This document shows positions 8,439 through 25,982 of a stretch of DNA of 64,000 nucleotides, one piece after another. Source of the DNA: an uncultured Gemmatimonadales bacterium. GTDB taxonomy: Bacteria > Gemmatimonadota > Gemmatimonadetes > Gemmatimonadales > Gemmatimonadaceae. Both the position numbers and the translations under genes were made by a program. The stretch's first letter is position 1; each line of letters begins with the position of its first letter. The notes under the pieces are model-generated. The model made no database searches, was not told the origin of the DNA, and worked only from the letters and a program-made list of their open reading frames with translations. Location: the NCBI GenBank assembly GCA_963793305.1, contig CAWBZV010000005.1, positions 640,001 to 704,000 of the forward strand, in the 5' to 3' direction.

Positions 8439-10509
8439 CACGATCGCCGAAGTCCCCGGTTGGCGCGCACCCGATGACGATGACACGCACGATACGCTGC
8501 TCGAGTTCAACGCCCACGTCTTGGCACTCGCGCAGCATCCGCGCACGCCCCTCTGCGAGCGCGCGCGCTTTCTCGCCATCCTCGGCGGGAATCTCGACGA
8601 GTTCTTCACCGTCCATGTGGGCGAAGCGAAGGCCTGGCTGGCGGGGAAGGGCGCGTTCGAGCCGGACTTCACGGATACCGACGGCGGAATAGGCGCGCGC
8701 GGTACAAACGTCCAGACGCTGATTCACGACACGATGCAGGCCGCGAAGGGCGCCGGCGCGCTGCTGCATCATGGGCGCGAGTGGTTCCGCACGGAATGCC
8801 GGCCCGCGTTCGCCGACGCTGGTATTCACCTGAGTCGCTGGACCGAGCTCTCGCCCTCATCCAGCGAAATCGCCGAGCGGTACTTCGCGGATCATGTCCT
8901 TCCCGTATTTGCGGGGATCGGCGGCGACGGGCTCCCGCATCTCCCGTCGCTGTCCCTCGCGTTGGTCGTGGTGCGTCAGAGCGACGGCAAGCTGCTCATC
9001 GTGCCCGTTCCCCGCACGCTGCCTCGCGCGATCGAGCTCCAGCCGGGCACCGAGTACATGGCGCTCGAGGAGCTGATGCTGCTCCACGCTCATGTGCTGT
9101 GCCCCGATGCAGGACCCGACGCGAAGGCGTTCGTGGTGCGAGTCACCCGCGCCTCCGATACGCGACTGGGGAAACGGCCGAGCGGCGACCCCGTCTCGGC
9201 GGCCGAGGCCTTGCTCGCACGCCGTGAGCACGCGCCGGTCGTGCGCCTCGAGGTCAACTGCTCGATGCCGCGCGCGATCCGCAAGCAACTCCTGGCGATG
9301 TTCAGCGCCGAGGCGCAGGCGGTTGGCGTGAGCGGCGCGACGCTCGATGCGTGCGACGTCTTCGAGACTGACGGCCCGGTCGTGTCGCTCGATGCGCTCT
9401 CGTCCATCGCGTCGATCAAGCGAGCGGATCTCACGTACCAATCGTTCCGCCAGCGCATCCCGATTCCGGAGTCGCAATCCATCTGGGAGCGGCTGCGCGC
9501 GGGCGATGTGTTCGTCCATTTTCCCTACGACTCGTTCACGGCCTCCGTGGGCCGCATGCTCGAAGACGCCGCCAGCGACCCCAATGTGCGCGCCGTGCGG
9601 TGTACGATCTACCGCACCGAGCGCGACTCCCGGGTGATCTCGGCGCTGGTGCGCGCCGCGCAGGCTGGCAAGGATGTGCTGGTGGTCGTCGAGCTCATGG
9701 CGCGCTTCGACGAGAGCCCGAATCTCCGATGGACCACGATCCTGACCGATGCCGGCTGCCGCGTGGTGCACGCGCCACCGGGCCTCAAGGTGCACGGGAA
9801 GGTCGGGGTCATCGTCCGTCCCGAGGGTTCGTACGGGTTCGTGAGCACGGGCAACCTGAATTCGATCACGGCGGCCCACTACACGGATTTCGCGATCCTC
9901 ACGGCACGCCCGGACATCATCGCCGAGCTCGCGGCGTTATTCGATGATCTCGCGGCGGGCGATGTGACGCGTGCCAAGTACCACCACGTGTTGGTGTCGC
10001 CGTACTCGATGCGCGACCCACTGCTGACGCTCATCGGCCGCGAGGCCGCGCGCGGCGAACAGGGCCGTATTCGCGCGAAGCTCAACGGTCTCGACGACCC
10101 GGAGATCATCGGCGCGTTGTACACGGCGTCCGAAGCGGGCGCGCGTATCGATCTCCTCGTACGCGGGCTCTGCACGCTCAGACCAGGTATTCCGGGTCGT
10201 TCCGAACGAATTACAGTTTCCAGCATTGTGGGCCGGTTCTTGGAGCATGGCCGCATCTATGCTTTCGGCGACGACTACTGGATCGGATCGGCCGACTGGC
10301 GCATGCGCAACTTGATGCACCGCGTCGAGGTTGCCACGCCAATCGTTGACGCGACGGCTCGGCGTCAAGTCGAGGAGATCTTGAGCGCCGAGTTGAACGA
10401 CCCGACGCGATGGATGATGCGCGGCGACGGGTCGTATGCGCAGGACCCGAACGCGGCATTGACCGAGGGGACTCAAGACCGATACGTATCGCGGCTGTCG
10501 CCTGTGTGA
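8422..10509 (+). CDS. ppk1: Polyphosphate kinase 1
   Basis: NLDEFF, HFPYDSF, VELMARFDE, KVHGK (phospho-His), STGNLN, SIVGRFLEHGR, SADWRMRNLMHRVE. Confidence 0.95.
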   Translation: MALDSSTIAEVPGWRAPDDDDTHDTLLEFNAHVLALAQHPRTPLCERARFLAILGGNLDEFFTVHVGEAKAWLAGKGAFEPDFTDTDGGIGARGTNVQTLIHDTMQAAKGAGALLHHGREWFRTECRPAFADAGIHLSRWTELSPSSSEIAERYFADHVLPVFAGIGGDGLPHLPSLSLALVVVRQSDGKLLIVPVPRTLPRAIELQPGTEYMALEELMLLHAHVLCPDAGPDAKAFVVRVTRASDTRLGKRPSGDPVSAAEALLARREHAPVVRLEVNCSMPRAIRKQLLAMFSAEAQAVGVSGATLDACDVFETDGPVVSLDALSSIASIKRADLTYQSFRQRIPIPESQSIWERLRAGDVFVHFPYDSFTASVGRMLEDAASDPNVRAVRCTIYRTERDSRVISALVRAAQAGKDVLVVVELMARFDESPNLRWTTILTDAGCRVVHAPPGLKVHGKVGVIVRPEGSYGFVSTGNLNSITAAHYTDFAILTARPDIIAELAALFDDLAAGDVTRAKYHHVLVSPYSMRDPLLTLIGREAARGEQGRIRAKLNGLDDPEIIGALYTASEAGARIDLLVRGLCTLRPGIPGRSERITVSSIVGRFLEHGRIYAFGDDYWIGSADWRMRNLMHRVEVATPIVDATARRQVEEILSAELNDPTRWMMRGDGSYAQDPNAALTEGTQDRYVSRLSPV

Positions 10510-10638
10510 TACCGGTATTGCCCTCCCGGGGGGACAGTCTCATGCGCGTTAAGGCCGTGTTTCGGTTCCAACGACTTGTAGGTCAACGAGTTGGGAACCG
10601 GGCCCCAACGGGCGCGAATCTCGCTTCCCGATACTGGC

Positions 10639-10947
10639 ATGCCCGCCATACCAGTAGAGACCACGGACGCGCTGCGATCGGCGATCATCGAGCACGTCAC
10701 GTTGGAGCCGGCGCCCGAGGCCCAAGTGCTCGATCGCGTGATCGAGCGGCTGACGCGAGAAGGGCAGCATCTCAACCTGCGCGTCGAGCAACTTCTGGTT
10801 GTCGTGAAGACCTGCTGGCACGAACTGCCCCTGGCCATTCGCCGCTCGCCACGCGCGGCTCCGGATATCCTGCTGAATCGCATGGTCCAAGGGTGCATTC
10901 GGACGTACTACGCGGATTCACGGCGTCGTCGGAGATTGGTCACGTAG
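10639..10947 (+). CDS. Small hypothetical helical protein
   Basis: Protein-like ORF between ppk1 and ackA (EQLLVVVKTCWHELP...CIRTYY); no recognised domain. Confidence 0.6.
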   Translation: MPAIPVETTDALRSAIIEHVTLEPAPEAQVLDRVIERLTREGQHLNLRVEQLLVVVKTCWHELPLAIRRSPRAAPDILLNRMVQGCIRTYYADSRRRRRLVT

Positions 10948-12066
10948 CACGTCGGTCACGTGTCGTGCGATCATCAGCTCTTCGTCGGTCGCGACGACAC
11001 GCACGGTGACCGCATCGCCGTCCGCGGAGAGAATCGCAGCGTTGGCGCCGTTCCGTGCCGGGTCGACACGCACGCCGAGAAATCCCAGCCCCTCGCAGAT
11101 CTGCTCACGCACCGGCGCCGCGTGCTCGCCGATGCCGCCAGTGAACACGATCGTATCAACGCCTCCAAGGGCCGCGGCATAGGCGCCAATGGTTTTCTTG
11201 ACGTGGTAACAGAACACGTCGATGGCTTCTCGCGAATCGGCATCCGTTCGCGCCAGCAATTCCTGCATATCGCTCGTCGCGCCCGAGAGCCCGAGCAATC
11301 CCGCTTGATGGTTGACGAGACGCCCGACGTTACCGGCCGACATATCACGTAACAGATACAGCATGACGCCAGGATCCAGATCCCCGGATCGCGTCCCCAT
11401 GACGAGCCCTCCGGTCGGCGTCATCCCCATACTGGTATCGACACTCCGCCCGTCGAGGACAGCCGCGACGCTCGCGCCGTTGCCGAGGTGCGCGATGATG
11501 GCCCGCTTGCCCAGCGGGACGGCGCTGACCACGTACTCGTAAGACAGCCCGTGGAACCCGTAGCGAATCACCCCGCGATCAGTGAGCGGCCGGGTGAGCC
11601 CCCACAGTTGCGCCACCCGCGGCATGCGCCGGTGAAACGCGGTATCAAAGCACGCGATCTGCTCAAGTCCGGACGACCATCGCCGCACCGCCTCGATCGC
11701 CTCGAGTGCCTGCGGCAGATGCTCCGGCGCCAGGGGAATCAGCCCACGCAACGTGTCCTCCACCGTTGACGTGATGCACACCGGTCCGAAATACGTCGCG
11801 CCACCGTGCACGATGCGATGCCCGACCGCGGCGAGACTCCGCACGTCGAGCCGTGCCTCGAGCGTCTCGGTCAGCACGCGCCACGCGGCGGCATGATCGG
11901 GCAGATCAACGCGCCGCTCGTCCGATGGCGTGCCGTGCACGGTCAGCGTGCCATCCGGCGTCCCGATGCGTGCCAGCGCGCCGGACATGATGCGCCCGTT
12001 CGCGTCTGCCTTCGCGAACACGGCGAACTTGAGGGACGACGAGCCGGCATTGAGCGCGAGAATCAT
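10918..12066 (-). CDS. ackA: Acetate kinase
   Basis: LNAGSSSLKF, GHRIVHGG, FDTAFH, YGFHGLSY, HLGNGAS, MGTRSGDLDPG, FTGGIGE. Confidence 0.95.
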   Translation of the reverse strand: MILALNAGSSSLKFAVFAKADANGRIMSGALARIGTPDGTLTVHGTPSDERRVDLPDHAAAWRVLTETLEARLDVRSLAAVGHRIVHGGATYFGPVCITSTVEDTLRGLIPLAPEHLPQALEAIEAVRRWSSGLEQIACFDTAFHRRMPRVAQLWGLTRPLTDRGVIRYGFHGLSYEYVVSAVPLGKRAIIAHLGNGASVAAVLDGRSVDTSMGMTPTGGLVMGTRSGDLDPGVMLYLLRDMSAGNVGRLVNHQAGLLGLSGATSDMQELLARTDADSREAIDVFCYHVKKTIGAYAAALGGVDTIVFTGGIGEHAAPVREQICEGLGFLGVRVDPARNGANAAILSADGDAVTVRVVATDEELMIARHVTDVLRDQSPTTP

Positions 12067-12106
12067 GGACGAATGGCCAATTTGGTATATGTTGGACCCC
12101 GGGCGT

Positions 12107-13603
12107 ATGGAGCAGCGCGTATTCTACTGCCAGGGCCCGGAAGCACACGTCTGGTCCGATCCAGATGATGCGGGCAAATGTTGTAACGGGTACGAGCGCG
12201 CCGTCGAGATCCAGCGCGACGCGCAGGGCAACGCGCAACTCGCATACTTCTGGCGCCCGATCCCGTCCCCAATCGTCGGTATCGCGGGAGCGCTGGTCGC
12301 CGATGAGGCACGCACACTCGGAACCGACCAGATCGTGATCCCGCCGAGCCCGACCCCGCCTGTCGAGGCCCACAGATGCTCGTTAGACGACGAGCCGCGC
12401 AGCGGGGAGGAGGGTCTTAGCCCGCTCCGCCACATAGCGTACTTCGAAGCACTCGGCGCCTCCGAGACGGGCACCCCGGAGTGGGAGGCGACGTCAGCCG
12501 GACTCGTCGTGCTCAGGCTCGTTGACCGTTGGGTCTGGCGCCACGTCCGCGAGCGCGCACCGACGTTTCGTGAATTCGTCACCGTTCGGCGAGCGATCGC
12601 GCGCGTCGCGCCCGGTGCGATGCGCGCCGCGCTCGAGGAGCTCGCCTCGGCGGTCGCCGTATTCTCCAGCGCGCGCGCGTCGCCAGTGAACGACTGTCTC
12701 ATGGCCTACGCGCAGGTCCTGCAAGATGGCGCGCAGTGGTCGTTGGCGGCCGACGTGTATGACACAGTCCTAATGAATGCGAGATCGGCGTCGGACGCGC
12801 GGGCGTTGCCGGTCTGCGCGGTGCGTGCCGGTCTCTGTCTCCGGATGATGGGCAAACTCCGGGAGGCCGACCGGGTGTACCGCTTCGGTCTCGACGTTGC
12901 CTCGGAGATCGGCGATCGGCACAGCGCGATGCTCGCGCGCGTCGGCCTGGCCGCGGTCGCGGCGCAGCGCGGTGAGCTGCCGGAAGCCGTGTCCGTGCTG
13001 GACCAGGTGATTCTTGACGCTGTCGGGCCGGAGCTCAAGGCGGTCCGGGCCGCGGCGCTTCACGATCGTGGCGGCGTCGCGATCGTCCGGCAGGAATATG
13101 AGCGGGCGGTGCTGCTTCTATATGAAGCGTTCACGCTCTATCAGGATGTCGCGAACCGTGACCGGGCGTTGAACGATCTCGCGACCGCGCTCGGCAGTCT
13201 CGGGTTGCGTGGGGCGGCGCACGATGCGTACTTCGTCATTCATTCGACGTTGCATCAGCGGGATCTGCGGTGGTGGGCAGGCCTCAACCTCATGCGGTTG
13301 GCGGTGCTGGAGCACAACGAGAGCGAGTTTGAGCAGTACCGGCTGCGGCTGCGCCGGGAATCGCTGACGGGCACGCATGCGGCCCACTATGCCCTCTTCG
13401 TCGGGGAGGGGCACGCACGGTTCGGGCGACCCGATCGGGCGCGCCGTGCGTTCTCGCGCGCCGCGGAGCTCGCGCTGGAGTTCGGTCTTCCGTCGGTTGC
13501 CGCCGGAGCGATCGCGGCGCGGGGATCGTCGGAGGTCGCGGCCACGCCCGCCGTCGCGCGGGTCGTCACCGCGATCCGCGCATTGGCCGGAGTCGAATCC
13601 TGA
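12107..13603 (+). CDS. TPR-like helical repeat protein; the Cys-containing N-terminal ~90 aa may be a separate gene
   Basis: Ala/Leu-rich helical repeats; extensive similarity to 23753..24788; start uncertain (12107 or about 12376). Confidence 0.7.
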   Translation: MEQRVFYCQGPEAHVWSDPDDAGKCCNGYERAVEIQRDAQGNAQLAYFWRPIPSPIVGIAGALVADEARTLGTDQIVIPPSPTPPVEAHRCSLDDEPRSGEEGLSPLRHIAYFEALGASETGTPEWEATSAGLVVLRLVDRWVWRHVRERAPTFREFVTVRRAIARVAPGAMRAALEELASAVAVFSSARASPVNDCLMAYAQVLQDGAQWSLAADVYDTVLMNARSASDARALPVCAVRAGLCLRMMGKLREADRVYRFGLDVASEIGDRHSAMLARVGLAAVAAQRGELPEAVSVLDQVILDAVGPELKAVRAAALHDRGGVAIVRQEYERAVLLLYEAFTLYQDVANRDRALNDLATALGSLGLRGAAHDAYFVIHSTLHQRDLRWWAGLNLMRLAVLEHNESEFEQYRLRLRRESLTGTHAAHYALFVGEGHARFGRPDRARRAFSRAAELALEFGLPSVAAGAIAARGSSEVAATPAVARVVTAIRALAGVES

Positions 13604-13605
13604 CC

Positions 13606-14451
13606 ATGCGGTTGCACCTGGGTCGCCGTTTGCGTGTGCTGCCAGCGCTCGCCGATCACGTCCTGCCATCGACGCGATCGATCGATGTCATCGCGTTTCT
13701 GCCCGACCGGCTGCTCCAGACGCTCCGCGTGGTCGCCGCGGGGCGTCATGTGCTCACGACTGTCGCGACGATGTCGGAGCTGGACGCAGCGTTGCGACAG
13801 GGTCGCGCCGATTGCGCGGTGGTCGATCCGCAGGGTCCTGGCCGGCCCGGGGCCAAGCGACTCGGACCGTTGCTCGCGCGGTATCCGGGCGTGCACGTCG
13901 TGGTGTATACGACGCTCACGGCCGAGTCCATGCACGACGTCGCGGCCCTCGGCGTTCGCGACGTCGTGCTCTTCAACTGCGACGACCGGCCGACCTACTT
14001 TCGCGACCTGCTCGAGACCGCGCCGGCGGCCTCGCTCACGGACGACGTGCTGGCGCGGGTCGAGGGGGCGCTCACGATCGTGCGACCCGAGCTCCGTCGC
14101 GCGCTGGCCGAGCTCTTTCGCGCTCCGGAAACAATCAGATCGGTCGATGCCTTCCGTCGCGTCGCGGGTATGTCACGCATGACGCTCGGCCGTGCGCTCA
14201 CGAAGGCTGGGCTGACGTCGCCTAGTGGTCTTCTGCGATCGGCCCGCGTGGTCCGCGTGTACTTCCTGGTGCGTCGCGGCGGGCTCCGCCTCAAGATTAT
14301 CGCGCCGCGGCTAGGCTACTCGTCGCCGCGAAAGTTGGCGGATGAGTGCAAGGCGTTGACGGGGCTCACGCCGATGCTGTTGTCGCGGACCGTCGATCCC
14401 GATGAGTTCTCGGCGCTCATCGCGCGCAAACTCATGCGCCATCCGTTGTAG
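13606..14451 (+). CDS. AraC-family regulator with receiver-like N-terminal domain
   Basis: DCAVVDP and VVVYT receiver-like strands; C-terminal twin HTH (AGMSRMTLGRAL; IAPRLGYSSPRKL..CKALTGLTP). Confidence 0.8.
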   Translation: MRLHLGRRLRVLPALADHVLPSTRSIDVIAFLPDRLLQTLRVVAAGRHVLTTVATMSELDAALRQGRADCAVVDPQGPGRPGAKRLGPLLARYPGVHVVVYTTLTAESMHDVAALGVRDVVLFNCDDRPTYFRDLLETAPAASLTDDVLARVEGALTIVRPELRRALAELFRAPETIRSVDAFRRVAGMSRMTLGRALTKAGLTSPSGLLRSARVVRVYFLVRRGGLRLKIIAPRLGYSSPRKLADECKALTGLTPMLLSRTVDPDEFSALIARKLMRHPL

Positions 14452-14515
14452 CTGCGCCGTTCATAACCACTCCGTTTTCAACACCACGTATCGTCCTCGT
14501 CGCGTATTGCTTCTG

Positions 14516-14562
14516 GCAACATTTTACAGTTGCGGGTGTGACTCAGTGGGCATATCTATGCC
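14516..14562. promoter_or_regulatory. Candidate operator/hairpin elements upstream of the lasso operon
   Basis: GCAAC-N8-GTTGC dyad (14516-14533) and GGCATA-TC-TATGCC (14549-14562) in an AT-richer spacer. Confidence 0.3.
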
Positions 14563-14634
14563 GCCACAGGCAAGCAGTCAGTGAGAGTGCGCCGCTGACG
14601 GGTCGTATGCAGCGAGTTCGATCCCTTTGTTCCG

Positions 14635-14958
14635 ATGATCGCGAGCTTTTTCCGGCGCGCCCGCGGGAAGCCAGCCGTTTCGTTGTCCGACCGTCTCATC
14701 GCGTCCCCACGCGTGTCGCGCGCGACGCAGCACGGTCAGACCATGCTGCTCGATCTCTCGGGCGGGGCGTACTACACGCTGAACGAGAGCGGCGCGTTCA
14801 TCTGGGACATGCTGAAGCAAGGCACCACGCTCGGCGAGATCGTCGACGCGCTCGAAGCGCGCTACGATGCGCCACGCGAACAGATCGCTTCCGACGCCTC
14901 CACAATGACCACGGAGCTGATTGCTGCCTCCTTGGTCCGCTTTGAGCGTGCCCAGTGA
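14635..14958 (+). CDS. PqqD-family RiPP recognition element (lasso B1/E)
   Basis: LLDLSGGAYYTLNESGAFIWDML signature; adjacent to B2 peptidase and cyclase. Confidence 0.92.
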   Translation: MIASFFRRARGKPAVSLSDRLIASPRVSRATQHGQTMLLDLSGGAYYTLNESGAFIWDMLKQGTTLGEIVDALEARYDAPREQIASDASTMTTELIAASLVRFERAQ

Positions 14959-15356
14959 TGACGCGAACTCGCGTCATCAAGCGAATTCGAGCCGTCGACA
15001 GCGCGGTCGCGCTGATCGCGATCAAGCTCATGCTGCTCGTGATCGGCTTCGCGCGCACTTACTCATTGCTCCAATCGCGCGTGCGCGATCTCGCCACAAC
15101 CACCGAGCCCGATGCCGCGACCTTGGACGCCTCCGCGCGCTCGATCGTCGTCGCCGCCATACTGATTCCGGGCCGCATCGAGTGCCTTGAGCAATCTTTG
15201 GCACTCTGGTACTTACTCCGCCGCCGCGGTGTCTGCGCCGAGCTGACGTTCGGCATGCGACAGTACCCGTTCGGCGCGCACGCCTGGGTAACCTACCGAG
15301 GCGAGCCGCTCAACGAGGATCGCGAAGCGCTCCGACATTACGTCGCCTTCGCCTGA
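14955..15356 (+). CDS. Lasso peptide leader peptidase (B2, transglutaminase-like)
   Basis: CLEQSLAL (catalytic Cys) and PFGAHAWV (catalytic His) motifs. Confidence 0.93.
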   Translation: MMTRTRVIKRIRAVDSAVALIAIKLMLLVIGFARTYSLLQSRVRDLATTTEPDAATLDASARSIVVAAILIPGRIECLEQSLALWYLLRRRGVCAELTFGMRQYPFGAHAWVTYRGEPLNEDREALRHYVAFA

Positions 15357-15360
15357 TCTC

Positions 15361-17107
15361 ATGCCCTCATTCTTCACACTGGTGCGCCCGGGCGGCGTCC
15401 CAGCCGACGAAGGAGTTCGCTGCGGCGACTGGACCGTCGTTGGCACGGCGCGCCTCGACAACCGCGCCGATCTCCAGTCGTGGGCGAACGCACCGGCAGC
15501 GGCCTCCGATCTCGATCTGATCGCGTCGGTAATCTCCACTCGCGGCGAACGCTGCGTCCGCGACCTCCTCGGCGACTTCGCTTTCGTCGCCCAGAATGCC
15601 GTGACTCACCAGGCAATCGCGGCGCGCGACGCATTCGGCGTGCGGCCTCTCTACTACCGCACCAAGCCCGACGAGCTGGCCTTCTCTTCCCACGCCGCTC
15701 GTCTGGCCGAGGGCACCGAGTATGACCTCGACTACATCGCCGAGTTCATTCTTTCGGGCTTCGACCGCGACCACCGCACACCTTACCGCGGCGTCCGCGC
15801 TTTCCCTCCGGGCCACGTCCTCGTAGCCCAGAACGGCACCACGACTCTCTCGCGCTACTGGTCCGCGGCCGAGTTCCAGCCCGCCGAGCATGCCTCGGCC
15901 GAGGAGAGCTGCACCGAGTTCCGTGCTTTGCTCGAGCGCGCGCTCATTCTCGAACCTCACAGGCGCCGACGACTGTTGGTCGCAACTGTCAGGCGGTCTC
16001 GACTCCTCCTCGCTCGTTTCGCTCACAGAAACAATGCGCCGTGCCGGCCGAGTCCCACACGGGATCGCCGGCACCGTGATGATGGTCGACTCGCTCGACG
16101 ACGAGTCTCACTACGCACGCGCGGTCGTCGAACAGTACGGCGTTCGCTTCGAAACGGTCACCGACTACTGGCTCTGGCAAGACGACGGCGAACCGCCGCC
16201 GCCCAACGACCTACCGGACCCACTCTACCCGATGTACGCCCGCAACCGCGCCCTCTGCTCGATCGTGCGCAACGCCGGCGGTCGAGTTTTGTTCAGCGGC
16301 GTCGGCCCCGACCACTTCGTCGCCGGCAACCTGTATTTCTTCGCCGACTGGCTCGCACGCGGCAAGGTCCTCGAAACCATTCGCGAGCTCTGGCGTTGGT
16401 CGGTGCTCGGCAAGAAGCCATTCTGGAAATACGCGGTCGACAACGCGATCGCCCCTTTGCTGCCGTCACGCCTCCGCAGCCTGGCGGCGCCGCGCTGGGC
16501 GCAGGTATACGACTGGATCTCTCCAGGGTTTGCCCGTCGCCTTGGGTTGAACGATCGGACCGCATGGGGCCGCGCGCTTAACGAGGCCCCACTCGGACAC
16601 AAATTCGAGGGGCAGGGCGTAGCGGACATCGATCACTTGGTCGTATGCATCGATCGTGGCGAGTTTGAGAGGGGCATCGAGATGCGATGTCCATTCCTCT
16701 ATCGCCCATTCGTGGAATTCTGCCTTCGGCTTCCGCGCGAGCTCCGTATTGAGAAGGCGACCAAGAAGTGGCTCATGCGCGAGGCGATGAAGGGCGTCCT
16801 TCCCGAAGGCGTTCGCACTCGTCGCGATAAGGGTGCGATCAGCGGTCGCACGCGCTGGGCTCTGAGTCGAGAAGGGTCAACTATCGCAACTATGCTGAAG
16901 TCGTCAACCCTCGCCGACCTAGGATGTATCGACATTACGAAGGTGCGGAAGGCAATTGAACGCGCTCGCACCGGTGATGACGCGGTGCTGTTCGCGGTCA
17001 CGCGAACGTTGGCGCTCGAATTCTGGCTACAGGTTACCAATCACCGGAGGAGGGTCCGCAGCCTTCCTACCGATTCGGCGGCATCGACCCTCGCCGTCGC
17101 CGTATAA
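15361..17107 (+). CDS. Lasso cyclase (asparagine synthetase-like), split by a +1 frameshift near 15947
   Basis: ARLDNR, GDFAF, ARDAFGVRPLYY in the first frame; LSGGLDSS, SGVGPD, RCPFL, KWLMREAM in the second; no N-terminal glutaminase Cys. Confidence 0.9.
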
Positions 17108-17135
17108 CACCACTCATTCTGGAGAAAGCAAGACA

Positions 17136-17255
17136 ATGCACAGCACCATCAAGCAGAGCTACCTTGCACCAAGCGCCACGCACACGACAATCGCGGTCGT
17201 CACGCTCGGAACCGCCAGTCAGTCTGGTGAGCCTGTCGCCGGCCTCCACTGGTAA
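17136..17255 (+). CDS. Lasso peptide precursor, 39 aa (MHSTIKQSYLAPSATHTTIAVVTL-GTASQSGEPVAGLHW)
   Basis: GGAGA RBS at 17121-17125; YxxP leader motif; Thr at -2; core starts with Gly and has Glu at position 8; directly follows the cyclase. Confidence 0.9.
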   Translation: MHSTIKQSYLAPSATHTTIAVVTLGTASQSGEPVAGLHW

Positions 17256-17264
17256 GCCGAGCTG

Positions 17265-17297
17265 CTGACGTGGAGCGGTCGCGGCCGCTCCCGTCAG
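17265..17297. terminator. GC-rich hairpin between convergent precursor and TonB-dependent receptor genes
   Basis: CTGACG(T)GGAGCGG-loop-CCGCTCCCGTCAG; no clear U-tract. Confidence 0.5.
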
Positions 17298-19888
17298 TAC
17301 AGGACGCGGAGTCCGAGGCTGGTCGTACGTCCGGGTGTCACAAACGTGGCAAATTGCTCGACAGCGTGGTTGTCGGTGAGGTTGTCGACGCTGACCCAAC
17401 CAGAGACGCGTCGGCTCAATTGCTGGTCGATCGTAAACCTGAGCTTGACGAAGCCAGGCCAACGCTTGAGTTCTTGGCGGGGAGTGAGGAGCGAATCTGC
17501 GGGGAGCGCCTGCTTCACGACGTCCATGCTGGTCCAGTAACCGACATACGTCCCTCCGACGCCAATGTCTCCGCCACGCCAGGGCGTAGCATTCATCGTC
17601 ATCCCACCTGACGTCAGTGGTACCAGTTGCGCTTGGTCGCCGACTCGGTATGAGCCGGTCGTGTCGCCGCCTAGTTTGACGATCTTGCTGGATGTGTACG
17701 AGTATTCCCCGGTCAAGCGCACCGGTGGCAAGGTGACCGTGCCGCTGATCTCCAACCCTTCGTTCTTGATCTCGCCGATATTTTGATACTGAAAGATGGT
17801 GGTTCCTTGTTTCGATCCCACTTGCTCGTGAATGATCAGATCATGTGCCCGCTGGTTGTAGTACGTGACCGAGAGTGATCCTGAATTGCCGAATTCCAGA
17901 TCAACTCCGCCGTCGCCGCCATCTTGACGCTCCGGCGCCAGCACCGGATTCGCACGCTGAACGGCGCCGAAGAGAAGAGACGCAGAATCACGTTGCGCCG
18001 GTAGACCGGGTTGGATCGCCGATCCGTACGAGGTCCGAGCTTTCAATACGATGTCGCCCAATGATTTAACGAAGGAGGCTCCGATTCGAGGAGCCAGCGC
18101 CACGCTGTAGTGCAGTCCGAAGCCGTTGTCTATGTCTGCGCGCAACCCGCCCGTCACGAATAGATGTTCCAGCACATTGATCTGGACTTGGCCGAAGCCG
18201 CCTGTGTTACTCACGGGATTGCGGTTGATAGCTGCCGCCGACGAGGAAGCGAGTCCCACGATGGCCGGCAATAGTGAGAGACCGACTTGATCTGATGTCC
18301 GTTCGTAGTGATCGAACCCGATCGTTGCTACTCCGTTCCATTCACGGCCGATTGGAACATGCACCGACGAGTTGTACGCGATGGATGCCTTGCCACTGGC
18401 TTGGTTGAATGACGCCAATAAGCTGTCGCCGGGGCTCGTGTATTGTGGTGACGTGCGTACTTCTTCGAGCTCGGAACGATCATAACCGATCGTGAGGCTG
18501 TGTGTCCACGCTTCGAAAGGACGATAAACGAGATTCAGCCCGTACGTCTCCTCGCGCTCCGTGTCGGTAGTGTTCTGCGGCTTCGCGTACGCCGGGACCC
18601 CAGTGGCGATGAGCGCCGGCGACTCGATGGCTGGGAAGGTCCTTTCGATATAACGAGCCGAGAGTTGAACGGAGACTGGCCGCTCGTCCAGGCGAATGCC
18701 GCCGTAGGCGCTCGGATCAGACGAATAGTACCCCGGTAGCCAGTCACCTACGTGGCGATAAGAAGCCCCGAGGTCATAGCTCGCGTCACCGTGAGCCCGT
18801 TCCAGAGATACGCTGTACTTCTGCTGCAACGCGGCGCCAGGCTGCGCAGGATCTTGGACGACGCCCTCGGCGACCGATGCCTCCAGGGTCGGATGGTCGG
18901 TCGCCAGCTCGCCATGCTTCGTGAAGATTTGCATCACACCACCGCTGGCATCCGATCCATAGATGGTCGACGCTTCCGGTCCGCGGATGACTTCGACGTG
19001 ATCGATACTGTTGATGTCGACAGCCGCATATGCGGGATCCGCAACCTCGACTCCGTCGATGTACGTCTTGATGTTGTTGATATTGAACGAGTTGATGCCT
19101 CGCACGCTGATCGTGCTGTAGTAGTCAAGTTGGCCTTGATCCCAGGCGATGCTCCCCGGCACTTGCCCGCGGAAGATCTGGTCCACACTTGTGAGGTGCT
19201 GTTGCTGGATCTCGTCACTCGTGATGACGCTGATGGGCGTCGGTATGTCGGCCACCAAAGTGGGCGTGACGGTACCGGTCACAACGACCCGTTCGAGCTC
19301 ACCCGTGAACTGCTCGACGCGAAACTCGACAGTCTGCCGACTGCTCTGGGTGACCGTGACCGTCTGGGACACGGGATGGTAGCCGAGCAGGCGTGCCTGG
19401 ACGGTGAAGGTGCCGTTGGGCACCGAGTCCAGACGGAACGCGCCGCTGTCCGTGGTAACCCCGTGGTGCCACAGGCCCACAATGACGATCGTGGCGCCGG
19501 GGATAGGTGCGCCGGTGTGCGAGTTCAGAACGTGGCCGCGGACGACCGACGGCGGAGCCTGGCGGACGATGATCGCGGAATCGAATGGCTGCGCGACGAG
19601 CCCCGTGCCGCGCAGAACGAAGCCGAGGGCGCGGGCTAGGGTGGTGCGGGAGTCGTGGAGTGTGACTCTCTGGGCAAGTGAGTTGACGACCAGCGTCTCG
19701 AAATTGAAGTCGACGCCAGTCGACCTGTGGATCTCGTCGAGCGCCTCGCGGACCGTCGCGTCGCGAAGGTCGACGGTGACGATCCGATCGAGGGGAGTCG
19801 GCGACGAACTGGCGGGGCGGGGAGTCGCCGGAGCCTGGGCACGCGCAACGCAAGGCTCCACTCCCAACCCGACGGAAATGGCCAGCAC
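17294..19888 (-). CDS. TonB-dependent receptor/transducer (STN signalling domain, carboxypeptidase-regulatory-like domain, plug, barrel)
   Basis: N-terminal LDRIVTVDLRDATVREAL; VVVTGT TonB box; IDHVEVIRGPEASTIYGSDASGGV; C-terminal NLTD...PGRTTSLGLRVLY. Confidence 0.93.
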   Translation of the reverse strand: MLAISVGLGVEPCVARAQAPATPRPASSSPTPLDRIVTVDLRDATVREALDEIHRSTGVDFNFETLVVNSLAQRVTLHDSRTTLARALGFVLRGTGLVAQPFDSAIIVRQAPPSVVRGHVLNSHTGAPIPGATIVIVGLWHHGVTTDSGAFRLDSVPNGTFTVQARLLGYHPVSQTVTVTQSSRQTVEFRVEQFTGELERVVVTGTVTPTLVADIPTPISVITSDEIQQQHLTSVDQIFRGQVPGSIAWDQGQLDYYSTISVRGINSFNINNIKTYIDGVEVADPAYAAVDINSIDHVEVIRGPEASTIYGSDASGGVMQIFTKHGELATDHPTLEASVAEGVVQDPAQPGAALQQKYSVSLERAHGDASYDLGASYRHVGDWLPGYYSSDPSAYGGIRLDERPVSVQLSARYIERTFPAIESPALIATGVPAYAKPQNTTDTEREETYGLNLVYRPFEAWTHSLTIGYDRSELEEVRTSPQYTSPGDSLLASFNQASGKASIAYNSSVHVPIGREWNGVATIGFDHYERTSDQVGLSLLPAIVGLASSSAAAINRNPVSNTGGFGQVQINVLEHLFVTGGLRADIDNGFGLHYSVALAPRIGASFVKSLGDIVLKARTSYGSAIQPGLPAQRDSASLLFGAVQRANPVLAPERQDGGDGGVDLEFGNSGSLSVTYYNQRAHDLIIHEQVGSKQGTTIFQYQNIGEIKNEGLEISGTVTLPPVRLTGEYSYTSSKIVKLGGDTTGSYRVGDQAQLVPLTSGGMTMNATPWRGGDIGVGGTYVGYWTSMDVVKQALPADSLLTPRQELKRWPGFVKLRFTIDQQLSRRVSGWVSVDNLTDNHAVEQFATFVTPGRTTSLGLRVLY

Positions 19889-19989
19889 GAGAAGCGATGA
19901 AGCGAACCGCCGAGCGGTGCAGGCCAGGACTTAGGCCTCCCAATGAGGTGGGGATGCGTCTTTACGCCCCCCACACTACATTAGGTTCT

Positions 19990-21045
19990 CTATTGCCGGA
20001 ATAGCTGAACCTTATGCTCGTCGGGTTTGTATTGCAGACCCGCAACCGTCTGCGTGAGCAACCCGAGGGTGTGCTCCATTGTGCCGTCAGCAACAGTGAT
20101 TGTGACTGGAACGGCAGCAAGACTCGCGTCCGCGATCTCGATGTCGATATTGTACTTTCGTCCGATCGTCTCGGCGACCTCGCGAAGTGGCGTATCCGTG
20201 AACGCCAACCGCCCCACGGTCCAGTCGAAGTACGCCGAGCCCACGGCCGTCACACGCACCGCACGCCCGGCGACGTTGACCTGCCCGATGCGCCCGCCCT
20301 CGAGGATCTCACTCCCGTACGGCGTCTTCACCGACACGCGCCCACTCTTGACGGCCACGCGCGCATCGCTGCCCGGATAAGCTCGCACGTCGAACTCAGT
20401 GCCGAGATCCCGCGTCTCGATGTTGCCCGCGCGCACGAGGAAAACGCGATCGGATCGATGCTCGACAGTGAACGATGCCTCGCCGACCAACGTCGCGACG
20501 TGATTGCCCGCGCGATCGATGGCGAACGAGAGACGGCTATCAGGTGCGAGCACGACGCGCGCGCCATCAGGCAAGCGCTGCTCGTGCGGCGTCTCCCCGC
20601 GCATCGCCATATAACTCACCGGCACGGACCGCACGGTAGCCACGCGCGAGATCACGTATGTCGTGCTAATCAACACGACCGCAGCACTCGCCGCGACAGC
20701 ACGCCACGGGATGCGCCAGCGCGGCATACCTTCAGCGAGCCCGCCGTCGACAACGCGCAGATGCTCGATCCCGCGCCCAGGCAGAGAGAACCGATCGCGC
20801 CGGTCGTGCTCGGCGATACGATCCTGTACCGATTCCCACGCATCTTCCGGATCGACCGGACTCGCCCCGATGCGCCGCCCGATCATCGACCAGACTTTCT
20901 TGTGCGCCTTGATGTAGCGCTGCACCGAGAGATCGTCCGACATCCAGCGCTCGACCTCGCGCCGCTCCGGCAGCGGACTCAATCCATCCAAAAAGCGGTG
21001 GACCGCCTCCCACCGCGGATCGTCCGGTCCGTATTCGTCAGTCAT
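19990..21045 (-). CDS. FecR-family anti-sigma factor
   Basis: N-terminal EVERWM helix, TM segment, LPDGARVVLAPDSRL, GEASFTV, LGTEFDV, LAFTDTPLREVAETI; start taken at MTDEY. Confidence 0.92.
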   Translation of the reverse strand: MTDEYGPDDPRWEAVHRFLDGLSPLPERREVERWMSDDLSVQRYIKAHKKVWSMIGRRIGASPVDPEDAWESVQDRIAEHDRRDRFSLPGRGIEHLRVVDGGLAEGMPRWRIPWRAVAASAAVVLISTTYVISRVATVRSVPVSYMAMRGETPHEQRLPDGARVVLAPDSRLSFAIDRAGNHVATLVGEASFTVEHRSDRVFLVRAGNIETRDLGTEFDVRAYPGSDARVAVKSGRVSVKTPYGSEILEGGRIGQVNVAGRAVRVTAVGSAYFDWTVGRLAFTDTPLREVAETIGRKYNIDIEIADASLAAVPVTITVADGTMEHTLGLLTQTVAGLQYKPDEHKVQLFRQ

Positions 21046-21095
21046 GTGTCCGTCTCGGAGGTTCAACACATATATAGACGCATGAGACCCGCTAT

Positions 21096-21803
21096 CTACG
21101 TATTCCGTCCCGGAGTCGGCAACCACGGCGCCAACTCTTTACGAAGCGTTGCATACGCCTGATGCAACTGCGTGTCCACCGTACGAATCGACACGCCCAT
21201 CAGCTCCGCGATCTGTGCGTTCGTGATCTGCCCGACGCGATGTAACACCAGCGTCTCGCGCCGCCGCACCGGCAACTTGGCGACCGCCCGCGCGATCGCC
21301 GCTTGCAATTCGCCAACCGCGAGCTCCGACTCGACCGGCAGTCGCTCCGGGTTCTCCGGAAGCGGCCCGGGACCAAACGTCCCGTTCGACCGGAGCACCC
21401 GCGCGATCCAATGGCGCTCCACGCGCCGCCGCCGGAGCGCCGAAATCGCCCGCTTCCGCACGGCCGCGTACAAATACGAAACGAGCGACTGCCGCACCGA
21501 CAACGTCGTCCGCTTCGTCCACAAGTTCAGCATGACCTCTTGGACAATTTCCTGCGCGTCCGCGTCCGACGCTACGAGCGCATAGGCGATATTGACAAGC
21601 CAGGGCTGATAATGTAGAAACGCATCGCGGAACGCGGTCTCGTCACCGCGATGAATCCCATCGATCCACTGGCGATCGGTCGTCGCCTGATCGATGGCGC
21701 CCCCGTGCTGCACGGAGGGCGATTCGAATCGCGGCCGGCGATTCACCGATGGCTGCCGGTGGCGGAACGGAGGACGGCGAGAATCATCTGACGCGGAGAA
21801 CAT
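21096..21803 (-). CDS. ECF RNA polymerase sigma-70 factor (FecI-like)
   Basis: Region 2 DAQEIVQEVMLNLW; region 4 LPVRRRE...IAELMGVSIRTV; upstream of fecR-like gene. Confidence 0.92.
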   Translation of the reverse strand: MFSASDDSRRPPFRHRQPSVNRRPRFESPSVQHGGAIDQATTDRQWIDGIHRGDETAFRDAFLHYQPWLVNIAYALVASDADAQEIVQEVMLNLWTKRTTLSVRQSLVSYLYAAVRKRAISALRRRRVERHWIARVLRSNGTFGPGPLPENPERLPVESELAVGELQAAIARAVAKLPVRRRETLVLHRVGQITNAQIAELMGVSIRTVDTQLHQAYATLRKELAPWLPTPGRNT

Positions 21804-21819
21804 AGAACACCCTCACTCA

Positions 21820-22023
21820 CTACGCAGCAGTATGTGGCAAACTCAACTCAACGACCGGCTCGACGAGATCACGCGCCCGCCGACCCGGCAACCGATCGGC
21901 ACGCATCGCTTCCGCGAGATGCCGTAGCCCCTCGAAGTACGCGACCATCTCCGTCTCGGCGCGCACGCGCGCCTCGAAGATCGGACGATCCGTCGTATCG
22001 AATGCCCGGTAGATCCAATACAT
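21820..22023 (-). CDS. Small hypothetical protein (67 aa)
   Basis: AAGGAGG-like RBS upstream on the minus strand; protein-like composition. Confidence 0.5.
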   Translation of the reverse strand: MYWIYRAFDTTDRPIFEARVRAETEMVAYFEGLRHLAEAMRADRLPGRRARDLVEPVVELSLPHTAA

Positions 22024-22239
22024 GGTGGGAGTCCTCCTTAATGCTCAAGAGACGCTCGCCACGCCCCGACTACGTATAGACGTGCGGACAACGTGACCGG
22101 GTGAACGTCGTTACGAAGCGCAAAGCCGGGGTCGCCAGGAAGCAACCTCAGCAAGGGCTTGTGCGGGGTATCTCAGCGCCTAATGTTGAGCCCGTTGAGA
22201 GCTCGCGCTCCGGCCCGCTCATAGGGGACGGGCCCGCGA

Positions 22240-22335
22240 TAACGGCACAACCGCCGAAAGGCGGCGTCGCAAAGCTCTGGAGGCTAACGCGCGCTTGAGC
22301 CATTCGGGCGCGCCATGCCAGTCCGGCCGCCGAAC
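22240..22335 (+). ncRNA. Cyclic di-GMP-I (GEMM) riboswitch
   Basis: GGCACAACCGCC-GAAA-GGCGG (P2, GNRA loop), CGCAAAGC junction, P3 with CTAA/ATG tetraloop receptor, closing GCCGAA; ends about 25 nt before a start codon with RBS. Confidence 0.8.
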
Positions 22336-22359
22336 GGACGAGAGGGGAGGAGCGCGCAC

Positions 22360-23710
22360 GTGACCACGCGGCTCATACTCGGCGCCTGCATGCTCGCGCA
22401 CGTGGCGCACGCGCAACTAGCGGCGAAGCCGTCGTTGGCGACACCCACAACGCTACGCGAGACAGAGACCGGTTCCTGGCGCGCGGGCGACGCCATGGTC
22501 TGGATCCGCGTCGCTCCCACCGGCGCGATCTCCGTCTACGCATCCCACGGGTACCGCAGCGCGTTCGCGCATGCGGTGATCATCACGCCCGAGGACGCCG
22601 ATAAATGGGCGGACCTCGGCGACCACGTTCTCGCCGGGCAAACGGCGAGTGGCGCGATCATGCTCGGCGACAGCGACATCGCGCTCGAGCCCATGCGCGC
22701 CGGCGACTCGGTCGCGCTCGCCGTCAGACTCGGCGGCGTGCGCCCCGACGGCATCACGTTCCTCATGAACGGGCAGTCGCTCCGTGAGGTCCTGCCGATT
22801 CTCCGGGCGACCGCGAAAGCAGCGCGCGCCACGCAATCGGCGAGCGCGGCACCTCCGGCGACAACACCGGCAACGCCGGCAGCCGCGCCGACTGCCGCGA
22901 AAACAGCTCCTGCGGCGCCAGTTATTGCGCCCGCTCCGGCAACGGCGACTGCAGCCCCACCTGCCGCGGCACCAGTTACCGTGACGCCAGCTACTGCGGC
23001 GCCAGCCGCTGCCCGCGCCACCACTCCGGCCGCCGCTCCCGCACCTACGCCGCACACGGCAGCGATCGACTCGCCCCCACCCGCAGTGCCGGTTGTCTTA
23101 GCCTCTGCGGCTGCGGCGCCCGCGGCTCCGCCAGAGGTCGCTGCGGCCGACACGCCACCCGCGCCCGCTCCCGAGGCCGAAGTGGCGCCAGCGACATCGA
23201 CGCCGAGCTGTCGTGGCAGCTCCGGTCGCGCCAGCTCAAGTCGCGCCAGTTCCGGTCGCGCCAGCTCCCGTTGCTCCCGCGAAAATCGCGAAAGTGACAA
23301 AGCTGAAGCCAACGCCCCAAGCGCCTGAGACGGTGCCGTTACGCCGTACGAGCGCCGGCAGCATCGCCAAGCCCGCGGCCGCCATGACGATCACCGTTGG
23401 GCCGACCGATGCCACCAAGCTCGCACCGTCGACCGTGGCCAACCTCGTCAAGCAATGGCAGTCGCAATTGGATCTTTGCTACTCTGAATTCGGCTTGAAG
23501 GTCAACCCGGCGTTGACCGGTTCGATCGCGGTGCGCCTCGCGATCCGTACCACGGGCGACGTTGGCGCGGCGACCTTCGTGCACCACAAGTGGTCTGGTG
23601 CGGGCGGTACCGAGGCCGAGTCGTGCATGCGCGCACGAGTGATGGCGTGGATGTTCCCACCGGCGTCGACGCCGAGTGCACACGAGTTCACCGTCGCCTT
23701 CGCACCGTAA
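22360..23710 (+). CDS. Secreted Pro/Ala-rich protein with C-terminal AgmX/PglI (TonB-C-like) domain; frameshift near 23208
   Basis: GAGGAG RBS, signal peptide, long PA linker, C-terminal LDLCYSEFGLKVNPALTGSI...ESCM...WMFP. Confidence 0.72.
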
Positions 23711-23752
23711 TCGATCGAGAGGGTTGCCAACGTCGGCGGCGACGCCAATGTT

Positions 23753-24788
23753 ATGTGTCCGATGTCGCCGATTGCGTCTCTGACGCTTCGCTTGTCCGAT
23801 GCACCGCGCTCTGAGGACGACACCCAGTCGGTGCACCTGAGACTGGCCGATGCCGATCGGCTCCGCCGCAGCGAATCATGGGATGACGCCATCGCCGCAT
23901 ACCGCGCCGCGATCGGCGCGGCCGCCCCAACTGACCGCGATCTCCTCGCCGACGCCAATCGGCACCTCGGCTTCTGCCTGCGCATGGCGGGACGCCTCGG
24001 CCCCGCGGCCGACGCGTACGCCGCGGCGGCCAGCATGGCCCACGGCCTCCGCGATGTGCGGCGCATGCTGCTCGCGCGCATTGGATCCGCCGTGGTCGTG
24101 TTCTATCGCGGGAATCTCCCCGCAGCCGCCGATATGCTCGAGGCCGTAGTGCTCGAGGCCGAGTCGCTCGTGGCCACGAATCGCTCTCTCGTCAATGTCG
24201 TCGCGCGCGCCAAGCACGATCGCGCGACCATCGCGCACGATCGAGGGTCGCCCGAGATCGCCGTCGCCGATCTCTACGAAGCGTTTCATTTATATACCGA
24301 TGCCGCACAACGCGATCGCGTGCTGATCGACATGGCGCGCGCGTTCGGTGACCTCGGACTGACCAACGTCGCGCGCGATGCGCTGCTGCTCTGCCGAACG
24401 TGCGCCGCCGGTCCCGCCGCGCGCACCGCCGCGACGATCAATCTGCTCGACATGGCCCAGCGCGAAAGCGATCACGTCACGTTCGAGCACTATCGCCAGA
24501 ATGCTCGCCGCGGAGCCGCTCATTCCAAGACACGCGGCGTACTATCATCTGTTCGTCGGTGAAGGCCTGAGACGGTTCGGCGACGCCGCGGCAACGGATG
24601 CGTACGCGCGCTCACGCGACATCGCCGAGCGGTACGGACTGAACGAGGTCATGCTGCGTGCCGAGGCGGCACTGACCACCCCCGCTCAGTCGCCCACGGC
24701 ACGCGCCCCTCGCAAGACGACGTATCCGCCGGCGGTCCAGCGCGTCGCCGCGTCAATTCACGCGCTAGCCGCACAAAACGCGGGCTAG
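23753..24788 (+). CDS. TPR-like protein, paralog of 12107..13603; frameshift near 24500
   Basis: Shared motifs CLRMxG, LARxG, RGxLP, HDR, LYEAF.LY, RDR.L.D, FE.YR, Y.LFVGEG..RFG. Confidence 0.75.
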
Positions 24789-24901
24789 CGCGTGACGCTT
24801 CGAGGCAGCGCTGACGCGCCGCACGAAGCTGGTCGGTTGGACAACGCTCGGCTGCGCCTCGCTGTGGCGCGCTGCCGCATTCGACGCCTAGATTGTCGGG
24901 C

Positions 24902-25330
24902 ATGCGTCGAACCGTGTTCCTCCTGATGGTGCTGGCCGTTGCCGCATGCGGGGCAACGCTGTGGCCTACGACGAAGGTGCAAACCAAGTCCTTCGCGCCC
25001 GATCTCTACGGCTGCGCGGCCGCGAGCGTCCGGGCGCTCAAGTACTCGTTGGTCAGCAACGACTCCAACGGTGGCCGGTTCGAGGCCCGGCGCAAGTACT
25101 CGCTCAAAGCAGAAGGTCCGGATGTCGATGAGGTCGGGCGTGCCAATGTCCTGACGGTGGAGATCGTCAAGGCACGGAACGACTCGAGTGGTACCACGAC
25201 CCTGAAGGTCCAAGCTGGGACGCTCTCGACACACGAGACGAAGCGTGGGCCGACGGAAGACCCGGAGTATGCTTCGCCCGCGGTGAAACAGGACGCCCAG
25301 ACAGTCGTCACCCGCTGCGCGAGCACATAA
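24902..25330 (+). CDS. Hypothetical lipoprotein
   Basis: MRRTVFLLMVLAVAAC lipobox. Confidence 0.7.
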   Translation: MRRTVFLLMVLAVAACGATLWPTTKVQTKSFAPDLYGCAAASVRALKYSLVSNDSNGGRFEARRKYSLKAEGPDVDEVGRANVLTVEIVKARNDSSGTTTLKVQAGTLSTHETKRGPTEDPEYASPAVKQDAQTVVTRCAST

Positions 25331-25334
25331 ATAC

Positions 25335-25982
25335 ATGCGGAACTACATCACGGAGTTCATCGGGACGTTTTTCCTCGTACTGACCGTCGGCTTCTGTGTG
25401 ACGTCCAACGCCCCCCTCGGCGCGCTGGCGATCGGCTCGTCGCTCATGATCATGGTCTACATGGGCGGCCACATCTCGGGCGGACACTATAACGGCGCCG
25501 TGTCGCTCGCCGTATTCCTCCGCGGCAAGATCGACGCGCGCACGTTCGTCGGCTATCTCATCAGCCAGCTCCTCGGCGCGATCGCCGCCGCGCTCATCGT
25601 GTACCTCGTGACGAGCAAGACCTATCCGCTCGCCCCTGGTCCGGGCGTCTCGCCGATGGCCGCGCTCATTGTCGAAACGCTGTACACGTTCGCACTCTGC
25701 ATCGTCGTGCTCAACGTCGCGACCTCGCCCGATACCGAGGGCAACTCGTACTACGGTCTGGCGATCGGCTTCACGATCGTCGTCGCCGCGATCAGTGGTG
25801 GATCGATCTCGGGCGGCGCGTTCAACCCGAACGTCGGCACGGGCCCGATCCTGGTCGATGCGATCCTCAAGGGAGGCTCGCTCGCCAATGTCTGGCTCTA
25901 TCTCGTCGGCCCATTCCTGGGCGGTGCATTGGCGGCATGGGTCTATCGGTTGCAGAACCCGGCACCGGCGGGCAGCGCCTGA
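25335..25982 (+). CDS. MIP-family aquaporin with variant NPA boxes
   Basis: EFIGTF, HISGGHYNGAVS, ISGGAFNPN, WLYLVGPFLG; six hydrophobic helices. Confidence 0.93.
   Translation: MRNYITEFIGTFFLVLTVGFCVTSNAPLGALAIGSSLMIMVYMGGHISGGHYNGAVSLAVFLRGKIDARTFVGYLISQLLGAIAAALIVYLVTSKTYPLAPGPGVSPMAALIVETLYTFALCIVVLNVATSPDTEGNSYYGLAIGFTIVVAAISGGSISGGAFNPNVGTGPILVDAILKGGSLANVWLYLVGPFLGGALAAWVYRLQNPAPAGSA

Follow-up and report, generated by a model that had tools for sequence, protein, structure and literature searches.

In a 64-kb stretch of the genome of an uncultured Gemmatimonadales bacterium (the window; positions 640001–704000 of contig C5, in a genome of 5.7 Mb and 26 contigs), a gene cluster for a 15-residue lasso peptide faces, tail-to-tail, an operon for a TonB-dependent transducer, a FecR-type regulator and an extracytoplasmic function (ECF) sigma factor. 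Judging from sequence comparison across relatives, the peptide, the C-terminal half of its cyclase and the ligand-facing part of the receptor are swapped between lineages as one allelic cassette. We suggest, with a probability of roughly one half, that the peptide is the ligand of the adjacent receptor and that the two are kept as allele pairs resembling pyoverdine and its receptor FpvA. Counted towards this reading were the place of the receptor family beside lasso clusters, the direct contact of the two gene sets without an S9 peptidase gene, the pattern of silent divergence, conflicting barrel and upstream-gene trees, a split at core residue 5, a low barrel dN/dS, and the fact that known isopeptidase-type lasso peptides mostly lack antimicrobial activity. 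The hosts are known here from metagenome data alone, and the peptide from its genes alone.

The receptor operon ends 38 nt after the precursor stop codon. The bounds drawn in an earlier, sequence-only reading of this DNA (14635..17255) hold for the lasso genes but leave outside the convergent operon, which is the more informative part. The genes expected of a cell-surface signalling system as defined in PMC2729926 (cited, like all papers below except two data supplements, for excerpts of its text) are present: those for a TonB-dependent transducer whose N-terminus is a signalling domain (STN; PF07660, E 4e-8, above cut-off), a FecR-type regulator and an ECF sigma factor. A structure model of the receptor, built from 136 sequences, shows a plug and a 22-strand barrel (predicted local distance difference test score 96); in fold it matches a SusC-type transporter best, and siderophore receptors and RagA almost as well. 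Prediction of a complex between the receptor and precursor residues 10–39, entered as a linear chain and not in the lasso form, gave no answer (score 0.00) and was used neither way. A hairpin lies between the facing stop codons in 11/11 loci, retained while its sequence changes, and the copy at 17263–17299 is probably a two-way terminator. A matching cyclase occurs in all five other genomes of the genus, where the top match always lies opposite this receptor.

Silent divergence is concentrated where the two gene sets meet. Relative to loci L004 and L043, synonymous divergence (dS) is 0.11–0.33 in the genes for the upstream tetratricopeptide repeat (TPR) protein and AraC-type regulator, the RiPP recognition element (RRE), the B2 peptidase, the N-terminal half of the cyclase, FecR and sigma, compared with about 2 in the barrel and 0.9–3.2 in the short precursor parts. 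L048 has more distant flanks (dS 0.5–0.76), the nearest core, and a barrel at dS 0.47–0.57. At four-fold degenerate sites, the peak begins at cyclase residue ~300, reaching about 0.9 kb into the C-terminal half of that gene, and continues through the precursor into plug and barrel; divergence is lower again in the periplasmic signalling domain, FecR and sigma. Compared with genome G062, the cyclase C-terminal half (0.38) and the receptor (0.39) head a ranking of 55 coding segments from 60 kb by divergence, above all 52 background segments (median 0.185, maximum 0.29). In a comparison of receptor dS over 31 loci, from which L070, L075, L092 and L094 had been removed as non-orthologues (34–39% identity or no match), the lasso receptor of G221 stood at 2.28 vs 0.11–0.32 for six other receptor orthologues. 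The barrel tree and the tree of the upstream genes reject each other (approximately unbiased test, p 4e-50 and 2e-58). With dN/dS at 0.08–0.10 in the barrel, the alleles have been kept working.

Peptide and receptor also co-vary. Core residue 5 is Gln or Arg in 5/5 loci of one barrel clade (bootstrap 100; the window, L005, L045, L048 and L049) and Leu in 5/5 other loci, so that this residue follows the receptor clade in 10/10. Core distances correlate with barrel distances (rho 0.46, p 0.004); for core and cyclase tail, rho is 0.28.

No gene for an S9 isopeptidase is present in the window cluster, the nearest PF00326 match lying about 50 kb away, and among the S9 matches of the genome none stood out as an orphan orthologue of a lost one. 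To place this absence, we examined the best 14 receptors outside the source genome among 47 matches listed from 400 genomes of the phylum. An S9-like gene is next to 12 of these 14, and nine face a lasso cyclase; four of the five without a facing cyclase are near contig ends. The tail-to-tail arrangement without S9 is found in the window, L004–L007, L043, L045, L047–L049 and L057, and ten S9-less receptors form one group (Shimodaira–Hasegawa-like approximate likelihood ratio support 99) in a quick tree that omits L047 and the receptors of two further lasso clusters on contig C3 of the source genome. Since S9-linked receptors occur in this tree both as the sister of the S9-less group and further out, the data favour a loss of the S9 peptidase in this lineage. 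L057 (5822–14392, in G160) has its parts rearranged, with TPR and AraC genes beside the sigma gene, and encodes a different, 19-residue core type with Glu8, again without S9.

The peptide family very probably yields a real lasso product. The 39-codon open reading frame (ORF) proposed for the precursor translates as claimed, starts 10 nt after a GGAGA site, and its product is already a called gene in a protein collection. It does form the tail of a longer ORF (16956–17255), as had been noticed; this 99-residue ORF was rejected as the true gene, being unconserved and interrupted in L004 by an in-frame stop 8 codons upstream. A precursor follows the cyclase directly in 4/4 close loci picked by cyclase alone (L004–L007). 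A profile seeded with nine family members matched 37 homologues among 50 screened candidates (E 6.6e-20 to 4.9e-10), which together with three cluster members give 40 distinct cores; as 37 of these represent 90% clusters, their distinctness is partly by construction. An earlier pattern search had forced core positions 1, 2, 7–9 and 12–14, and conservation is therefore quoted from the profile set; L040, a chance pattern match, and L042, L044 and L046, identical in sequence to L005, L004 and L006, were dropped before counting. The precursors match no Pfam or NCBIfam model, and a PDB sequence search returned only chance sedolisin matches (E 0.6) in a set that leaves out chains of fewer than 20 residues and hence most solved lasso peptides.

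Gly1, Gly7, Glu8 and Gly12 are invariant in the 40 cores, and Pro9 and His14 occur in 38. Most cores (34/40) are 15 residues long; positions 3–6, 10 and 15 vary. In the 38 distinct leaders, Thr at −2 and Leu at −1 are universal, and the Tyr-x-x-Pro element, likewise found in all, has its Tyr at −16 in 35 and at −17 in three. The fuller lasso leader motif is YxxPxLxxxG. The short spacing of the window leader, described as one residue below the usual, is thus genuine but a family trait and no peculiarity of this precursor, and L007 has the canonical form. Because L007 combines canonical spacing with an unchanged core pattern, the cleavage site is fixed. The predicted cut before Gly25 and the Gly1–Glu8 ring are supported by the invariant Gly1 and Glu8 together with the universal Thr at −2. 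None of the 40 cores has a Cys in positions 1–15 or in its tail, in line with the proposed class II (disulfide-free; PMC13352647) assignment. Leu13, His14 and Trp15 had been put forward as plugs; position 13 (Tyr 26, Leu 9, Phe 5) and His14 would remain the better candidates, whereas position 15 is variable (F13, I8, V7, L5, W3, A3, N1) and is Ala in three cores. The cyclised window core has a predicted monoisotopic mass of 1477.695. The family offers a compact 15-residue scaffold, with cyclases that accept wide variation at positions 3–6, 10 and 15.

All four biosynthetic genes proposed earlier, for the RRE, the B2 peptidase, the asparagine-synthetase-like cyclase and the 39-residue precursor, are present. 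Cys77 and His109, with Glu117/121, are the predicted catalytic residues of B2. The cyclase carries SGGLDSS and begins MPS, without the N-terminal Cys, as had been stated; among NCBIfam models it fits the lasso cyclases NF033535 and NF033561 best, in each case below cut-off. The description of the cluster as complete holds for the gene set but not for the assembly, in which the cyclase occupies two frames (15361–~15948 and ~15950–17107). An indel suspected near 15947 is indeed there, as one extra base at 15947–15949, and this base is missing from intact relatives and from contigs of other strains. Across the break site, the cyclase is in frame in 8/8 distinct relatives (L004–L007, L041, L043, L048 and L049), 12/12 members of a related protein cluster have 581 residues, and 4/4 contigs (runs X1, X2 and X4; other strains, ~91–96% alike) lack the extra base. 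Compared with G062, isolated one-base insertions break at least seven further genes in the same 60 kb (at 7976, 24500, 26653, 33918, 46513, 47829 and 54006), among them what we take to be genes for threonine synthase, phosphomutase and glucose-6-phosphate dehydrogenase, and five more frame changes occur across 4 of the 22 TPR paralogues. Four of the eight insertion sites (15949, 46513, 47829 and 54006) are beside TCGA (background 6.9%), pointing to TCGA methylation as a likely source of errors in the base calling of long reads.

The extra base is very probably an assembly error, as far as the comparison with other strains can tell, and only then is the cluster complete; the cyclase break aside, its testable features all place it among the class II lasso clusters. 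It is highly improbable that the frameshift is genuine and the cluster dead in the source strain while the family lives on in relatives: the contigs over the site do come from other strains, ~4–9% different from the window, but the same kind of insertion hits at least seven other genes, in three cases again next to TCGA, dN/dS is ~0.1–0.2 in both halves of the cyclase, and a cyclase could in principle be supplied by the two other lasso clusters of the genome. A programmed frameshift was rejected in view of the in-frame relatives.

Several observations weigh against the peptide being the ligand of this receptor. Against G062, the dS of the lasso receptor (0.69) is surpassed by two of the 18 other orthologous receptors (1.47 and 0.93, at C3:1280606–1281691 and C9:16869–18083 of the source genome), so such peaks are not unique to the lasso receptor. 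Barrel distances are matched more closely by the leader (rho 0.77) than by the core, and the most divergent pairs peak highest over the barrel and not over the peptide. The residue-5 split amounts to a single event between linked genes, and because precursor and receptor are neighbours, they may share their history without any need for binding. Variable receptor sites are not enriched in extracellular loops (loops 0.52, strands 0.45, periplasmic turns 0.74, plug 0.18, with loop bounds taken from our own reading of the secondary structure of the model), and neither are clade-diagnostic sites (loops 0.073, strands 0.089, plug 0). No export route for the peptide was seen. Lastly, the genome has 36 S9-family matches, so that a peptidase acting from elsewhere is possible, and the receptor of L058 (G289) is also S9-less yet falls outside the S9-less group in the quick tree. 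Neither dN/dS nor loop site counts gave any sign of positive selection on the receptor loops.

If the ligand reading holds, the RRE would bind the leader, B2 would cut before Gly25, and the cyclase would join Gly1 to Glu8 around the tail at the expense of ATP; leader capture, cleavage and ATP-dependent ring closure are established lasso chemistry (PMC13352647). The product would be a 15-residue class II lasso, presumably threaded and probably locked by residue 13 and His14, which may leave the cell by a general route encoded outside the cluster. There it would bind the plug and barrel of the tail-to-tail transducer, whose STN domain, going by the domains present, could signal through FecR to the ECF sigma factor. 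With S9 lost, the ring would have no dedicated opening enzyme, which would fit a signal better than a catch-and-release carrier. Exchange of the cassette would then resemble that of pyoverdine types with FpvA, with specificities presumably matched. One specific form of the proposal, possible though somewhat doubtful, is a strain-type signal: a protease-proof pheromone acting through its own transducer, FecR and sigma, with old alleles kept balanced across species lines and a response to the self type only. If true, this would give receptor-linked lasso peptides their first physiological role and add to peptide pherotypes a counterpart in Gram-negative bacteria.

It is unlikely that the lasso instead serves as a siderophore-like carrier that binds a metal or small cargo, for instance via His14, and is re-imported by the receptor, with sigma induction only tuning uptake. 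This function has been hypothesised for isopeptidase-type clusters (PMC9266682, PMC11006600), pyoverdine shows that carriers, too, give matched allele pairs (PMC2777410), and both the near-invariant His14 and the full barrel of the receptor would suit it. Set against this, the proposed release enzyme is absent at the locus, Glu8 is consumed by the ring and no other acid or Cys is conserved in the core, and no inner-membrane uptake genes were seen nearby.

The divergence peak might also reflect phages or bacteriocins that diversify the receptor, the peptide gene being carried along and any role of the peptide being independent of the receptor. The height of the peak over the barrel, the two other high-dS receptors in G062 and the leader that tracks the barrel better than the core all agree with such hitch-hiking, and pressure from bacteriocins has been put forward to explain the mosaicism of fpvA (PMC2777410). 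We nevertheless consider it distinctly unlikely, given that phage escape would tend to raise both loop enrichment and dN/dS, of which the former is missing and the latter low, that the peak extends ~0.9 kb into the cyclase, and that members of the receptor family adjoin lasso genes in different genera of the Gemmatimonadaceae. A narrow-spectrum antimicrobial that enters relatives through this receptor family, with allele switching as self-protection, has a precedent in the entry of microcin J25 through the TonB-dependent receptor FhuA (PMC11006600) and would suit 40 precursors with 40 different cores (partly by construction), but is very unlikely, as the producer itself has an intact receptor encoded next to the peptide and neither an ABC exporter nor an immunity gene lies in 8000–26000; a scan of flanking proteins (5763–25982) likewise showed no ABC transporter.

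Among known systems, the closest in its working is the isopeptidase type of lasso cluster from Proteobacteria (astexin/AtxE2, sphingopyxin I, benenodin; PMC9266682): like these, the window cluster has A, B and C genes but no ABC exporter, a TonB receptor with sigma and anti-sigma factors, and a class II core. In the same source, receptor and sigma/anti-sigma genes are constant companions of such clusters, and the peptides mostly lack antimicrobial activity, their role for the producers being called enigmatic. The window cluster is not a member of this type because it has neither the isopeptidase nor a GntR-like regulator ahead of the precursor; TPR and AraC-type genes precede the operon instead, and the cyclase precedes the precursor. 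In addition, its peptidase consists of two separate proteins, RRE and B2, the precursor comes last, and the phylum is another. As in the pyoverdine–FpvA system of Pseudomonas aeruginosa (PMC2777410, PMC2729926), the locus combines a self-made peptide-based molecule, a TonB transducer that begins with a signalling domain, and a pair of anti-sigma and ECF sigma factors, and ligand and receptor types are the most divergent part of the region. Unlike pyoverdine, the ligand proposed here is ribosomal and predicted to be knotted, and there is no sign of iron binding or of positive selection in loops. With S9-bearing lasso/receptor clusters of Gemmatimonadota, the window cluster shares the facing layout, a related receptor (32–38% barrel identity), FecR, sigma, cyclase and B2, whereas it lacks S9, its receptor stop abuts the precursor stop, and it encodes one 15-residue core instead of one to five mostly longer ones. 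Microcin J25 has a Gly1–Glu8 ring, as is predicted for the window core. Antimicrobials of its exporter-bearing type (PMC13352647) are likewise class II; in contrast, the window cluster comes without an ABC transporter but with a receptor operon of its own, and the tail of its core is much shorter.

The peptide family appears to be undescribed. The core had not been recognised as a known lasso peptide, and no match to it emerged from the lasso table or literature searched: the family core motifs are absent from the 4,749 entries of the LassoPred table (PMC12214591 supplement), 31 rows of which are labelled Gemmatimonadota, and from the searchable files of the LassoESM supplements (PMC12480086). 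A literature search with the motifs found no paper, within a scope outside which lie subscription papers, bioRxiv supplements and the RODEO and antiSMASH databases, which may hold the family. Lasso clusters were reported for 29 metagenome-assembled genomes in a survey of Gemmatimonadota from the sea, whose excerpts (PMC11316326) give no peptide sequences. New lasso cores as such are common; the added value here is a system pared down to a peptide and a signalling receptor with natural series of 40 cores and of ten peptide–receptor pairs, the latter drawn from a single tight clade of receptors and from several lineages beyond it.

Features of the lasso locus and the facing receptor operon (positions in the window)
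Feature	Position	Strand	Evidence and remarks
TPR protein, Gemmatimonadota-expanded family	11930..13603	+	Weak TPR_12/TPR_MalT matches below cut-off; start uncertain
AraC-type helix-turn-helix regulator, receiver-like N-terminus	13606..14451	+	PF12833 E 6.1e-10; PF00072 only E 0.096
Conserved non-coding element before RRE gene	14530..14601	+	Kept in 8 loci
RRE (B1, PqqD-like)	14635..14958	+	PF05402 E 1.8e-20; NF033530 best NCBIfam model, below cut-off
B2 lasso leader peptidase	14955..15356	+	PF13471; NF033537 86 bits vs cut-off 33
Lasso cyclase (C)	15361..17107	+	NF033535/NF033561 best; relatives have 581 aa; frame broken by an extra base at 15947–15949
Precursor (A), 24-aa leader and 15-aa core	17136..17255	+	Translation; homologue family
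Strong hairpin between two facing stop codons	17263..17299	.	z −2.84; 0/200 shuffles equally stable
TonB-dependent transducer (STN, carboxypeptidase-like domain, plug, 22-strand barrel)	17294..19888	-	PF07660, PF13715, PF07715, PF00593
FecR-type anti-sigma/sensor	19990..21126	-	PF04773, PF16344; start possibly nearer 21045
ECF sigma factor	21096..21803	-	PF04542, PF08281; TIGR02937 above cut-off

Upstream of the lasso operon, the TPR gene keeps its position in L004, L005, L007, L043 and L048, and the AraC protein is 88–98% identical in close relatives and 69% in L007. The source genome has 22 paralogous TPR loci and seven AraC loci, five of the seven AraC genes directly following a TPR gene, and TPR-AraC is thus a recurring two-gene regulator there. 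The TPR protein is a probable regulator, with a putative link to the lasso genes; a role as peptide sensor was unsupported, since its Atlas matches under 0.9 are only Gemmatimonadota TPR clusters. The ~70-nt conserved element ahead of the RRE gene contains two possible hairpins, is single-copy in the genome and occurs only at orthologous loci. Covariation in it is weak (two-sided change in 1/16 pairs) and it has no Rfam match, which removes a known RNA from consideration; it is a candidate promoter/operator or structured leader. No sigma-70-type site was found on the + strand of 14300–17500.

The two other lasso clusters of the source genome (C3:509800–521750, L061 and L062; C3:755100–767250, L063) each have two to four precursor-like ORFs, an S9 peptidase (PF00326), a TonB receptor and, in the SusD position, a lipoprotein-like gene without a Pfam match. 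The first has three GT9-like genes upstream, and the second a Ser/Thr kinase gene, as do L056 and L060. In G062, a second cluster (L139:7619–8702) has five precursor-like ORFs, some with Cys, that face S9, receptor, FecR and sigma genes. Many other lasso precursors of Gemmatimonadaceae (L018–L023, L025, L027–L033, L035 and L038) have odd first core residues (N, L, V, M, Q, R, H, A or S), Asp/Glu mostly at position 8, and a common C-terminal motif like G-[SAT]-[VIL]-G-[FY]-x-[LIV], which may be read by receptor or peptidase; those checked adjoin S9 and receptor genes.

Just 5' of the ECF sigma gene of the window, a 67-residue ORF (21820–22023, − strand) has a ribosome-binding-like site and no NCBIfam match. 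Beyond it lies a c-di-GMP-I riboswitch (22234–22334, + strand; Rfam, 57.5 bits vs gathering threshold 35), followed by a gene (22315–23710) that is split in the assembly and whose L048 orthologue carries an AgmX/PglI C-terminal domain (NF033768, above cut-off).

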